NCBI GenBank assembly: GCA_964247135.1
Contig: CAXTTL010000142.1
Coordinates: forward strand, 1 to 12,400
Direction of reading: 5' to 3'
From: an uncultured Deinococcales bacterium
GTDB lineage: Bacteria > Deinococcota > Deinococci > Deinococcales > JAAFIG01
DNA: 12,400 nt
Part shown: positions 1,957 to 10,884 of the stretch, in pieces
Layout of the letters: each line of letters opens with the position of its first letter
Numbering within the stretch: the first letter of the stretch is position 1
Made by a program: the position numbers and the translations under genes
The notes under the pieces: generated by a model
Databases searched by the model: none
Told to the model about the DNA's origin: nothing
Seen by the model: the letters and a program-made list of their open reading frames with translations, nothing else

Positions 1957-1992
1957 CTCCCTCTCCGCTGGTGGGAGAGGGTTGGAGAGAGG
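1957..1992 (+). repeat. REP-like palindromic repeat, copy A (hairpin plus G-rich tail)
   Basis: CTCCCTCTCCGCTGGTGGGAGAGGGTTGGAGAGAGG; stem CCCTCTCC 1959-1966 / GGAGAGGG 1974-1981. Confidence 0.9.
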
Positions 1993-2008
1993 AGGAATGC
2001 CAGTGATT

Positions 2009-2338
2009 TCACTCCAACATCGCCAATCGAACCCTCTCGAGCACCCCCTCGAGATTCTCGAGGATTTCATAATTCCAAAATCGCATCACCCGAAACCCTT
2101 GAGACTTAAGCCAGGCATCCCGAATTTTGTCGTATTCGCTTCCCGCATGATGATTTCCGTCGGCTTCAATAATGATTTTATGCTCGAAACACACAAAATC
2201 GACAATGTAACGCCCAAGCGGTTGTTGTCTTTTGATTTTCACGCCAAAATTGTTCCTGCGCAGATGTTTCCACAATACTGCTTCGGCAGCCGTCATGTTG
2301 GAACGCATTCGTTTGGCTCGAGTGAGAAGTATATCCAC
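2009..2338 (-). CDS. DUF559 / Vsr-like PD-(D/E)xK endonuclease
   Basis: RA+.MR.NMT.AE..LW..LR, KIKRQ.P.G.YIVDF.C.E.K.IIE.DG..H and RD..L...G+.V.RFWN are hallmark DUF559 motifs. Start codon (GTG) is uncertain, with no clear SD. Confidence 0.88.
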   Translation of the reverse strand: MDILLTRAKRMRSNMTAAEAVLWKHLRRNNFGVKIKRQQPLGRYIVDFVCFEHKIIIEADGNHHAGSEYDKIRDAWLKSQGFRVMRFWNYEILENLEGVLERVRLAMLE

Positions 2339-2386
2339 CAGTCTTTTTTAGCACATGCTGCTCGAGAATTGCGTGCTTTTGCGCCC

Positions 2387-2422
2387 CCTCTCCCCGACCC
2401 TCTCCCACCGGCGGAGAGGGAG
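2387..2422 (-). repeat. REP-like palindromic repeat, copy B (inverted relative to A)
   Basis: Reverse complement is CTCCCTCTCCGCCGGTGGGAGAGGGTCGGGGAGAGG, 3 mismatches to copy A over 36 nt. Confidence 0.9.
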
Positions 2423-2440
2423 AATTGCTTTAGGTGATGT

Positions 2441-3817
2441 ATGGCTGATTTATCGATTGATTTTTGTGGCATCAAATCCCCGAATCCTTTCTGGCTTGCC
2501 AGTGCGCCGCCAACCAATTCTGGGCATCAAATTCATAAAGCTTTTGAGGCGGGTTGGGGAGGTGCGGTTTGGAAGACGATTGGTGCGCCTGTGTTGAACG
2601 TCTCGAACCGTTACGGCACAGTCAAATACAACGGGCAAATTATTGGGCTGAACAACGTCGAACTAATCTCGGATCGTCCGCTCGAGATCAATTTACGTGA
2701 AATCGCGGAAATCAAAAAATTGTGGTCTGACCGTGCCGTCATCGTATCCGCAATGGTGGAGAGCACTCGAGAAGCTTGGAAGGACATCATTCAGCAGATC
2801 GAGGATACTGGCGCGGATGGCATCGAACTCAATTACGGTTGTCCGCACGGCATGTCTGAACGCGGCATGGGCGCAGCGGTAGGGCAAGTCCCCGAATACT
2901 GCCAGCAAATCACCAGTTGGGTCACAGAATTCTCGAGCCTGCCTGTGATCGTGAAACTTACGCCGAACGTCACAGACATCACCTATCCTGCTCGAGCGGC
3001 GGTGGCGGGTGGCGCGAATGCGCTTAGTTTAATCAACACCATCAACAGCATTGTCGGCGTGAATCTGGACACTTTCGAGTTAAGCCCGAACATTGGTGGA
3101 AAAGGCGGACACGGTGGTTATGCGGGTCCTGCGGTCAAACCGATTGCGCTGCATTTGCTTTCGCAAGTTGCTTTGGTGCAAGAGGTCGCTCGAGCCAAAA
3201 TGCCAATTTCGGGCATGGGCGGCATCATGAATTGGAAAGATGCCGCCGAATTTTTGCTGCTTGGCGCTTCGAGTTTGCAAATTTGCACGGCTGCCATGTT
3301 GTACGGTTATCGCGTTGTCGAGGACATGATTGACGGGCTTTCCAACTGGCTCGACGAAAAAGGCATCGCAAGCGTCAACGAAATCATCGGCGCGAGTTTG
3401 CCGCGCATTTCAGATTTTGGGGATTTCGATTTGGGCTTTAAAACGGTCGCCAGAATCAACCAAGATTCCTGTATTCAGTGTGATCTGTGCTATATCGCCT
3501 GCAACGACACCGAACACCAGTGCATTGATTTGTACCGTGATGGTGCGCTCGTCGCGGCAGGACATGATGCTCGAGACAATGGTAAGCACATGGCAACCTC
3601 GAGCCGTCCATTTCCGGTCATCCGTGAATCCGATTGTGTGGGTTGCGATTTATGCCATAACGTTTGCCCAGTGCAAGGCTGCATCGAAATGGTGCAAGTC
3701 CCCAGTGGACGCGAAGGCACGACTTGGCGACAACTCTCGAGCGAACGCCCTGAAGTCACGCAAGATTGGGCGGCGATGAAAGCGTACCGCGCCGAAATTG
3801 GTTTGGACATTCACTGA
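2441..3817 (+). CDS. preA: NAD-dependent dihydropyrimidine dehydrogenase subunit PreA/PydA
   Basis: NPFWLASAPPT, GGAVWKT, NVELISDR, catalytic ELNYGCPH, VKLTPN, INT, and two C-terminal CxxCxxC ferredoxin motifs. SD AGGTGA. Confidence 0.95.
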   Translation: MADLSIDFCGIKSPNPFWLASAPPTNSGHQIHKAFEAGWGGAVWKTIGAPVLNVSNRYGTVKYNGQIIGLNNVELISDRPLEINLREIAEIKKLWSDRAVIVSAMVESTREAWKDIIQQIEDTGADGIELNYGCPHGMSERGMGAAVGQVPEYCQQITSWVTEFSSLPVIVKLTPNVTDITYPARAAVAGGANALSLINTINSIVGVNLDTFELSPNIGGKGGHGGYAGPAVKPIALHLLSQVALVQEVARAKMPISGMGGIMNWKDAAEFLLLGASSLQICTAAMLYGYRVVEDMIDGLSNWLDEKGIASVNEIIGASLPRISDFGDFDLGFKTVARINQDSCIQCDLCYIACNDTEHQCIDLYRDGALVAAGHDARDNGKHMATSSRPFPVIRESDCVGCDLCHNVCPVQGCIEMVQVPSGREGTTWRQLSSERPEVTQDWAAMKAYRAEIGLDIH

Positions 3818-3861: not shown

Positions 3862-4428
3862 ATGACCGCAACGCTTGAAAACGTGAACCTCGAGCCACAT
3901 CGTTTTACCGTGCAGGAATACCAACGAATCTTTGAGTCAGGCATTTTGCCAAGCGATCAACGCAACCAATTGATTCGAGGGGAGATTTACTTTATGGCGG
4001 CAATGGGCGCAGCACACTACAAGGCGATTCGGGTTCTGACAAAATTACTTCATCAAAAGTATTCTGATCTTTGTGATGTTGTGCCTCAAGCGCCGATTGT
4101 GGTTTGGGATGACTCCGAACCCGAGCCAGATTTTGCCCTGATACGCAGTGATTTTGCTGGCGGCATTCCCGAAGCGACAGACGTTTTGCTGGCAATCGAA
4201 GTCAGTGATTCCACACTCAAATTTGATCGCGAGAAAAAACTACCCGAATACGCTCGCTCGAGCATTCCTGAAGTCTGGATTTTCAATCTAGCAGAAGCAC
4301 AACTCGAGGTGTACCGCGAACCGAGTGGTGAACAGTTTTTGCAATTGCAAATTTTAAAACCCGAACGTGAAGTGTCGGCATTGTTCGCGCCAGAAGTCAA
4401 ACTCGAGTGGTGGAAGGTACTGGTGTAA
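3862..4428 (+). CDS. Uma2 family (DUF820) putative endonuclease
   Basis: HRFTV.EY..., LI.GEI..M...G..H, SEPEPD, LL.IEVSDS+L..DR..K...YA...IPEVWI. SD AAGGAGG. Confidence 0.9.
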   Translation: MTATLENVNLEPHRFTVQEYQRIFESGILPSDQRNQLIRGEIYFMAAMGAAHYKAIRVLTKLLHQKYSDLCDVVPQAPIVVWDDSEPEPDFALIRSDFAGGIPEATDVLLAIEVSDSTLKFDREKKLPEYARSSIPEVWIFNLAEAQLEVYREPSGEQFLQLQILKPEREVSALFAPEVKLEWWKVLV

Positions 4429-7295: not shown

Positions 7296-7361
7296 TAATG
7301 GATAGTTTTCTAAATCTATGTGCGACTTGCCATTACTTCATCCGATCTAGACTTCAATTTA

Positions 7362-7403
7362 GCTCCCTTCTCCTGATGTTGGGAGAAGGGTTGGGGATGA
7401 GGG
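7362..7403 (+). repeat. Solo REP-like palindromic repeat, copy C (variant)
   Basis: GCTCCCTTCTCCTGATGTTGGGAGAAGGGTTGGGGATGAGGG; stem CCCTTCTCC 7365-7373 / GGAGAAGGG 7382-7390, followed by the same type of G-rich tail. Confidence 0.85.
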
Positions 7404-7410
7404 TAGACTG

Positions 7411-9630: not shown

Positions 9631-9852
9631 ATGAACACGATCTTAAATGAGACTCGAGTGACCTACACATACACCAACAAAAACGGTGCGACGGTTATCA
9701 TCAAAAATGTTCCTGCGAAGTTTTTAAAAGACGAATTTGGCAACGAGCACGAAACCTATGCGTTTGGTGTGGCGATGCGCCTTGAAGAACTGTGCAACCG
9801 AGCGTTTGAAATAGACTCGAGCGACGGTGTGATGCACGAACTCGAGTTTTGA
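9631..9852 (+). CDS. YgiT/MqsA zinc-ribbon-like protein lacking the CxxC pairs (putative antitoxin)
   Basis: TRVTYTY...G.TVIIKNVPA resembles YgiT-type domains. GAGGAG SD; directly downstream of the DUF4258-like gene. Confidence 0.6.
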   Translation: MNTILNETRVTYTYTNKNGATVIIKNVPAKFLKDEFGNEHETYAFGVAMRLEELCNRAFEIDSSDGVMHELEF

Positions 9853-9872
9853 AGTTTTACAAAACCCAAAAT
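9816..9872 (+). repeat. 57-bp direct repeat, copy 1
   Basis: CTCGAGCGACGGTGTGATGCACGAACTCGAGTTTTGAAGTTTTACAAAACCCAAAAT; identical to 10828-10884 at 52/57 positions. Confidence 0.92.
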
Positions 9873-10827: not shown

Positions 10828-10884
10828 CTCGAGCGACGGGGCGATACACGAACTCGAGTTTTGAAGTTCTGCAAAACCCAAAAT
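10828..10884 (+). repeat. 57-bp direct repeat, copy 2 (orphan 3' end of the YgiT-like gene)
   Basis: CTCGAGCGACGGGGCGATACACGAACTCGAGTTTTGAAGTTCTGCAAAACCCAAAAT; reads SSDGAIHELEF* versus SSDGVMHELEF* in copy 1. Confidence 0.92.

Follow-up and report, generated by a model that had tools for sequence, protein, structure and literature searches.

A DUF559 nuclease gene framed by inverted BoxC/PIT/TMECO-type modules at a preT-preA junction in Deinococcales: a candidate autonomous partner of solo triplex-type repeats

The BoxC/PIT/TMECO repeats have been known since the 1990s, and to our knowledge no function, origin or mobilising enzyme has been assigned to them. The DUF559 domain is very widespread and has a solved structure, and we know of no role assigned to it. 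RAYT genes, the enzyme genes that accompany repetitive extragenic palindromic (REP) sequences, are vertically inherited, single-copy and under purifying selection. The TMECO motif of Escherichia coli forms a triplex in vitro and marks unstable loci, and according to the 2015 survey no transposase or integrase remnants had ever been found near TMECO repeats (PMC4666352). The present work concerns a stretch of 12,400 nt from an uncultured Deinococcales bacterium (contig CAXTTL010000142.1 of assembly GCA_964247135.1), hereafter the window, which is contig C142 of a 5.09-Mb genome (G000; 386 contigs, 84% complete), and in which a small DUF559 gene located between a preT-like and a preA-like gene is enclosed by two inverted hairpin repeats. 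We consider positions 1945-2440 to represent a 0.5-kb cassette, composed of the DUF559 gene and two inverted BoxC/PIT/TMECO modules framing it, which behaves as one evolutionary unit and belongs to a class that is probably the autonomous partner of solo modules, a reading to which we assign a probability of roughly 60%. The pairing of gene and modules, their gain and loss as a unit, inversion between the arms, a mirror rule within the modules, and selection on both gene and arms are observed.

The framing repeats form an inverted pair (I1; 1949-1995 and 2384-2430, arms of 47 nt, 85% complementary and 388 nt apart) which is the longest among the 95 inverted pairs of the window. An initial annotation of this DNA had reported flanking inverted repeats of 36 bp with 33 identical positions, and this was reproduced when positions 1957-1992 were compared with the reverse complement of 2387-2422, the 33 matches and 3 mismatches giving a score of 27 (matches minus two per mismatch). 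The same score, determined for 1493 random pairs of 300-nt windows of the same genome that were spaced like the flanks of small genes, had a median of 9, a 99th percentile of 13 and a maximum of 14. Each arm contains an 8-bp hairpin (CCCTCTCC/GGAGAGGG), with calculated folding energies as DNA of -8.2 and -10.6 kcal/mol, and in both arms a G-rich tail lies on the side of the gene. The left arm (1957-1995, plus strand) is made up of a C-arm (1959-1966), a loop (1967-1973), a G-arm (1974-1981), a TT spacer and the gene-ward tail (1984-1995), and the right arm (2384-2422, minus strand) reads as C-arm, loop, G-arm GGGAGAGGG, spacer and tail GGGGAGAGGGGG, the latter being the exact mirror of the G-arm. 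The left-arm tail is degenerate in the window, where it carries two G-to-A changes with respect to the right arm and the orthologues; this third block is intact in the orthologues of two congeners (G001 and G003).

Between the arms, and antisense to the operon, lies the DUF559 gene (2009-2338, minus strand; 109 aa, GTG start), which encodes a Vsr-fold PD-(D/E)xK protein and is separated from the right arm by a 5' leader (2339-2383, minus strand; orthologue identity 0.79) holding a short AGCAC...GTGCT palindrome around CTCGAG. The right junction (2423-2440, plus strand), which was delimited by comparing filled with empty loci and includes AGGTGATGT directly before the preA ATG, stands in place of the GGGGGGAAA-type stretch of empty sites; either sequence may serve as the ribosome-binding site of preA. 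The arms, the gene (PF04480 match with an E-value of 2.1e-38) and its neighbours were all found as the initial annotation had given them, as were the hairpin and inward tail of each arm and the lack of a DDE or HUH transposase (no transposase domain among the 13 window open reading frames (ORFs) scanned by domain search), and its description of the locus is therefore correct.

What did not survive is the designation of the repeat as REP-like. The arms fit the intrastrand-triplex class of BoxC/PIT/TMECO repeats, as far as can be judged from their sequence, and not the RAYT-type REPs, the RAYT gene of this genome being associated with another REP. According to PMC4666352, the BoxC/TMECO pattern consists of a nine-base C-arm, three to six bases, a nine-base G-arm, three bases and a second nine-base G-arm, with one stem mismatch allowed; the right arm, read on the minus strand, agrees with this pattern, its single mismatch being located at the end of the C-arm. 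Among 73 copies of the genome recovered with a rigid pattern, the 5' stem base, the 3' stem base and the tail base covary (C/G/G in 36 and T/A/A in 32 copies, with 5 discordant). A mirror rule (antiparallel, with G placed over G and either A or T over A, at most one mismatch) was tested in the flanks of homologues from many phyla, where it is obeyed by 119 modules, permuted tails giving 25 on average and 37 at most, and asymmetric stems such as GGGGGAAGG with tail GGATGGGGG obey it as well. Because the A-to-T changes in the tail are unable to pair with the C-arm, the tail would act as a third strand rather than as a second candidate for pairing within the hairpin. A tail mirroring the purine arm would correspond to the sequence rule for an intrastrand purine-motif triplex, and such a triplex is predicted here.

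The product of the gene matches PF04480 with 131 bits (cut-off 20.6) over profile positions 5-105 of 109, and is approximately half identical to PDB entry 3HRL (E-value of 2.8e-26), which was deposited as an 'endonuclease-like protein'. All 15 residues that are invariant across 15 diverse DUF559 members are kept in the window protein, including D47, E58, D60 and H64, the conserved acidic/His core of the Vsr-type fold, which is presumably catalytic as in Vsr. The profile match of DUF559 to the homing endonuclease I-Bth0305I (3R3P) is weak (E-value of 0.0089); VSR, DUF559 and 3R3P are grouped in one PD-(D/E)xK subgroup according to PMC3424549. For the window gene and its orthologues (four in total), dN/dS amounts to 0.05-0.11 at a dS of 0.56-1.11, and mean pairwise identity is 0.88 for the left arm, 0.92 for the right arm, 0.79 for the 5' leader and 0.73 for third positions of the ORF. 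By these measures the gene is under purifying selection with its arms conserved too, and the window copy is to be regarded as a long-resident unit kept by selection, being neither a recent arrival nor a decaying relic.

The association between modules and DUF559 genes extends beyond the window. The genome contains four DUF559 genes, three of which (in contigs C142, C61 and C252) have inverted modules at 20-78 nt from each end, and only six module pairs lie within 2 kb of each other genome-wide, three of them enclosing these genes (gaps of 379-406 nt), so that a strong enrichment of the repeat beside DUF559 genes, for which the initial annotation had proposed a test, is indeed found. The other three close pairs comprise two gene-less ones (gaps of 99 and 116 nt) and a chance pair of different subtypes around pgk. 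In the cassettes of C61 and C252 the tails point outward. Across the order, PF04480 matched 84 places in 26 of the 41 genomes sampled; 70 small stand-alone loci were tested, with gene ends set from the core match, and, five being short-flanked, 32 of the 65 testable loci have flanking inverted repeats that score above the null maximum. Beyond the order, 80 loci were found, of which three Deinococcales orthologues and four short-flanked loci were set aside; 55 of the remaining 73 exceed the same threshold, in a sample that is biased towards the clade of the window because the window protein alone served as query. A control with mismatched flanks gave 54 of 292 pairs above 14, and the likeness of arms from different phyla keeps it from being a clean null. 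With a strict detector, tails were found to point inward on both sides in 20 of 71 cross-phylum loci and outward on both sides in none, and the layout seen in the window is therefore typical of its clade. In a tree of 67 proteins, several clades are mostly arm-flanked, each with its own arm type, and several arm types may share one genome (G012 and G024 have three each), from which it follows that the type of arm goes with the nuclease clade rather than with the host.

The copies of the repeat in the genome were retrieved with a profile built from eight copies (nhmmer, E-value of at most 1e-3), yielding 104 copies in 5.09 Mb, 91 of these with a tail. Nearly all are of one subtype, whose stem is CCCTTCTC(C/T) (the CCCTTCTCC subtype, approximately 100 copies), which is also the subtype flanking the C61 and C252 cassettes. 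A strict regular expression (CCCT[CT]TCC stem, 8 loci) had suggested a rare repeat, a reading that was rejected in view of the approximately 100 copies, with a stem longer by one base, returned by the profile search. One solo copy lies in the window itself, within a 115-bp insertion (7296-7410, plus strand; module approximately at 7362-7406) that was recognised by comparison with congeners. This insertion sits where the stop codon of an ABC ATPase gene and the start codon of a permease gene overlap (ATGA) in relatives, both signals being kept and ATGA being present at both of its ends; it occurs in G000 and G003 and is absent from G001, G002, G004 and G005 (two of six congeners), and the part of it that recurs elsewhere in the genome is limited to the module of about 45 nt. 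The solo copy that had been noted at 7362-7403 is thus real, but it belongs to the CCCTTCTCC subtype of C61 and C252 and is not offspring of the window cassette. The G003 version of this module has a nested 35-nt hairpin in its loop, and the same composite form recurs in the genome. As a further observation, the gene-less inverted pairs mentioned above (C54, 11123-11336, 116-nt gap; C21, 6383-6559, 99-nt gap) have outward tails, and may represent either leftovers of cassettes or independent doublets. The genome encodes one RAYT (C249), with another type of hairpin at its flanks, as well as three weaker Y1-transposase matches; no triplex module was found within 2.3 kb of any of these four.

Comparison with relatives indicates that gene and arms come and go jointly. 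An orthologous segment of 489-495 nt with 84-87% DNA identity occupies the preT|preA junction in G001, G002 and G003, corresponding to the inserted segment of the window (preT stop to preA start, 1945-2440), which is missing from the empty sites of other relatives: in G005 preT and preA are separated by 14 nt, and in G008, G006, G010, G009, G014, G015 and G017, which represent other genera, by 14-38 nt. In G004 the outer half of the right hairpin and the right junction alone are present, which we take to be a deletion remnant. From the filled, empty and remnant sites at the same junction it follows that the arms were acquired along with the gene, and that both can disappear jointly. Empty preT|preA sites, which the initial annotation had proposed for defining the ends of the element, thus exist and document joint presence and absence, with no sign of independent gain of gene and repeats, yet they do not define clean ends. 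Entry of the cassette at preT|preA, a junction with translational coupling, would date to an ancestor shared by four to five congeners, with vertical inheritance since then.

The same junction holds other cassettes. G007 carries one whose DUF559 gene is kin of the window clade and which has composite arms and outward tails, and in G011 and three to four genomes of genus g5 the cassette at preT|preA contains a DUF559 gene of a different clade (99/99 support), four further g5 genomes being empty. A tree in which the nine junction copies are constrained to a single clade is worse by 30.2 log-likelihood units (approximately unbiased (AU) test, p = 0.027), for a group that was named by location but after the tree was seen and in which two rows are long-branched. 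With two DUF559 clades at preT|preA, the site has therefore probably been colonised at least twice, or alleles have been exchanged. Polymorphism is also seen at the other loci: the C61 cassette is missing from G001, and the C252 cassette is inverted with respect to both flanks in G003 relative to G000, the breakpoints being located inside the arms, while synteny breaks at the C252 site in G002 and G005. As a separate observation, a 6.7-kb contig of G002 (C28) contains an intact C252-type DUF559 gene together with six or more pieces of this gene and of its arms, and looks like a cluster of decayed cassettes.

By analogy with the relation between the RAYT gene and REPs, this cassette class is likely to be the autonomous partner of the solo triplex modules, and the following sequence of events may be envisaged. 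The nuclease would bind the module, recognised as a folded structure or by its sequence, and would nick at or beside it; host recombination or template-switch repair would then use another copy of the module; modules would in this manner spread and become homogenised, with the gene carried along when both arms are used; and inversion between the arms would be a by-product. That the DUF559 protein is what drives the spread of modules is a tentative proposition, to which we give somewhat less than even odds. Its generalisation is slightly more doubtful: DUF559 proteins, including E. coli YcjD and PDB 3HRL, might be the missing enzyme partner of BoxC/PIT/TMECO repeats, that is, structure-recognising Vsr-fold nickases that spread, homogenise and invert modules with the aid of host repair, constituting a class of prokaryotic mobile elements in many phyla without HUH or DDE chemistry. 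In E. coli K-12 (region 1351040-1351830), a canonical BoxC/TMECO repeat is located about 170 nt downstream of ycjD, a degenerate hairpin lies at the stop codon, and a partial duplicate of the gene's own 3' end is found between stop codon and BoxC. The ycjD stretch is present at a coverage of at least 80% in 3375 of 5426 complete E. coli genomes, and about 38% lack it and carry the eefRABCD efflux operon there instead; according to PMC12817139 (2026), ycjD stands where this operon has been lost at least twice.

A number of findings weigh against the cassette being a mobile unit and the partner of solo modules. The window arm subtype (CCCTCTCC stem) has no other DNA match and no solo copy in its own genome, and the window cassette therefore shows no sign of mobilising anything here; it is, on the evidence of these searches, a resident without progeny, the approximately 100 solo modules matching the arms of other DUF559 cassettes. 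The mirror rule is lost in its left-arm tail. No clean ends were obtained, the junction sequences at preT|preA differing between filled and empty alleles, no target-site duplication was detected at the cassette (at preT|preA and in the orthologues) or at the C61 locus, as the initial annotation had stated for the window, and the C61 indel exceeds the cassette by about 110 bp. The fourth DUF559 gene of the genome (C290), a close paralogue of that of C252, is without arms, as is an entire 21-member DUF559 clade, all of family f1. Conversely, G005 retains many modules and only fragments of the cognate gene, and G007 has at least seven modules of the window subtype, none of its DUF559 genes being flanked by that simple form. 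The locus counts obtained order-wide and across phyla (32 of 65 and 55 of 73) include orthologues and kin and hence do not represent independent events. Strong purifying selection under vertical descent would fit a host-useful gene equally well. Furthermore, a hydrolytic PD-(D/E)xK enzyme is by itself incapable of strand transfer, and we know of no DUF559 family member with an established nuclease activity, binding site or cleavage site.

Several of these points would be expected if DUF559 were a host repair enzyme, a Vsr-like nickase of mismatches or structures, around which modules cluster for reasons other than mobility, either as regulatory or binding sites or as recombination-prone DNA that brackets small genes acquired horizontally. 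The low dN/dS of 0.05-0.11 under vertical descent in four species, the apparently vertical arm-less clade in the same family and the missing solo progeny of the window cassette are consistent with this explanation, and the Caulobacter DUF559 protein VsrA behaves, according to PMC12907096, like a Vsr-type endonuclease tied to a cytosine methyltransferase. We nevertheless regard it as unlikely, since it has to accommodate the presence/absence polymorphism of whole cassettes among congeners, the two clades at one junction, the several recent paralogues per genome within the C252 clade, arm types that track the nuclease clade rather than the host genome, a module-DUF559 association that spans phyla, and a window in which no DNA methyltransferase domain was detected among the 13 ORFs scanned.

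That the C252 cassette has opposite orientations in G000 and G003, the breakpoints lying in its arms, raises the alternative of an invertible switch, in which programmed inversion would regulate DUF559 or the flanking operon and the repeats elsewhere would be unrelated. DUF559 is enriched among predicted inversion targets (Table 1 of PMC9881135), which is in keeping with such a switch, yet all four preT|preA orthologues have one orientation, no recombinase domain was detected among the 13 window ORFs, and the approximately 100 solo modules, the mirror tail and the presence/absence polymorphism would be left unexplained, making this alternative very improbable. About equally improbable, in our estimation, is that the modules are REP-like sequences moved by another enzyme, RAYT or an unknown one, with DUF559 genes as passengers between two insertions. 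The genome does encode a RAYT and the three weaker Y1-transposase matches, and solo modules do insert independently of DUF559 genes; against this, the RAYT has a different hairpin at its flanks, the modules nearest to Y1 matches are more than 2.3 kb away, compared with 20-78 nt for three DUF559 genes, paired insertions at three of four genes and at 55 of 73 distant homologues are very unlikely to arise by chance, and the two arms of the window belong to a subtype found nowhere else in the genome. The cassette reading, in which gene and modules form one unit, is the one retained here.

As regards the surroundings of the cassette, the preT-like gene (616-1950) encodes Fer4_20 and Pyr_redox_2 domains and the preA-like gene (2441-3817) DHO_dh and 4Fe-4S domains; preA is followed by a Uma2 nuclease gene, a dihydropyrimidinase-type amidohydrolase gene and an ABC transporter. 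The Uma2-family (PF05685) gene (3862-4428), situated between preA and the amidohydrolase gene, is a second small nuclease gene in the operon; it follows preA in G002, G003, G005 and G008, and was not found within 785 nt after preA in G004, G007 and G010. Elsewhere in the window, a 57-nt direct repeat (91%; 9816-9872 and 10828-10884) marks the ends of two neighbouring ORFs on the minus strand, and a sigma-70 region 4 match occurs in one of them. A search of sequencing runs listed no RNA set containing this DNA, and the best DNA matches, present as contigs only, contained at most 0.16 of the sampled words.

The genome is further characterised by an excess of CTCGAG, its 5.09 Mb containing 33,925 occurrences, roughly 27 times the expected number, of which 96 lie in the window. 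In the loci of relatives, its density per kb amounts to 3.8-8.2 in all 17 f1 genomes sampled, to 1.4-1.9 in f2 and to 0-0.4 in f3/f4. The arm-less, vertical-looking DUF559 clade (21 rows, among L056-L085) is confined to f1, the same family as that with the CTCGAG excess, and it may be wondered whether its members are Vsr-type repair enzymes that skew repair in favour of CTCGAG. Beside these arm-less genes, 11 flanking ORFs from six loci included no methyltransferase; in two loci (L058 and L060) an AAA_15 ATPase gene follows, and the window's own genome, at 84% completeness, yielded no member of the clade.

The pairing described here may provide the BoxC/triplex repeats with an enzyme partner, and it provides both DUF559, a 12-kDa protein, and the repeats with a testable hypothesis. 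If correct, it would explain why DUF559 genes score as inversion targets in PMC9881135, why DUF559 genes turn over between close strains, E. coli ycjD included, and why the numbers of triplex modules differ strongly between relatives. No description of a cassette composed of DUF559 and triplex repeats was found in the literature, supplements apart; DUF559 contexts may appear in the ITxF tables of PMC4666352 and among the loci tabulated for PMC9881135.

With respect to known systems, the modules share with the BoxC/PIT/TMECO repeats of Holder et al. (2015, PMC4666352) the succession of C-rich arm, short loop, G-rich arm, 2-3-nt spacer and mirroring G-rich block, as well as being multicopy, varying in copy number between relatives and being located at unstable loci. 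They differ in that the published repeats were treated as orphans and counted in Proteobacteria, whereas those described here frame a nuclease gene as inverted pairs, both in Deinococcales and in other phyla, and in that they include the stem variants CCCTTCTCC and CCCTCTCC and composite forms with a nested hairpin. Terminal inverted repeat (TIR) transposons and miniature inverted-repeat transposable elements (MITEs) agree with the cassette only in part, the inverted arms being present without a target-site duplication at the cassette or, in the 13 window ORFs scanned, a transposase domain.

The likeness to the REPtron or REPIN-RAYT arrangement resides in an enzyme gene that is present once, descends vertically and is kept by purifying selection, in its inverted hairpin flanks and in the many intergenic solo copies. 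Dispersed hairpins in inverted orientation do flank the gene, with the qualification that the subtype of the window itself has no dispersed copies in the genome. The initial suggestion of a REPtron-like element with a non-RAYT enzyme accordingly stands as far as anatomy and the framing of a non-HUH nuclease are concerned, but not with regard to the HUH hallmark, which is absent, or to the repeat, which is not a REP: the framed gene encodes a hydrolytic Vsr-fold PD-(D/E)xK protein (PF04480) instead of an HUH Y1 transposase (PF01797), and a mirror tail of the triplex type is part of the repeat.

The Vsr-like (EDxHD) homing endonucleases, I-Bth0305I (PDB 3R3P) for example (Dassa et al. 2009, PMC2677866), which belong to the same PD-(D/E)xK subgroup according to Steczkiewicz et al. 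(2012, PMC3424549), resemble the cassette gene in being free-standing selfish nuclease genes that show presence/absence and recurrence at a fixed site among conserved genes. Unlike these, the cassette has flanking inverted repeats and a population of solo repeats and is not associated with an intron or intein, sequence similarity is weak, and purifying selection has acted on the window gene after its fixation. The fold is shared by Vsr and by VsrA of Caulobacter, and VsrA contains a DUF559 domain and is a DNA-damaging endonuclease in vivo (PMC12907096); both are connected with cytosine methylation and T:G mismatches, with no repeat framing reported in the sections of that source drawn on here, whereas no methyltransferase was found near the window gene (13 ORFs). 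The repeat class and the protein family with its structure were thus already known; what is new is the cassette of nuclease gene and repeats, which amounts to a selfish nuclease gene equipped with small repeats and has a fair chance of being more.

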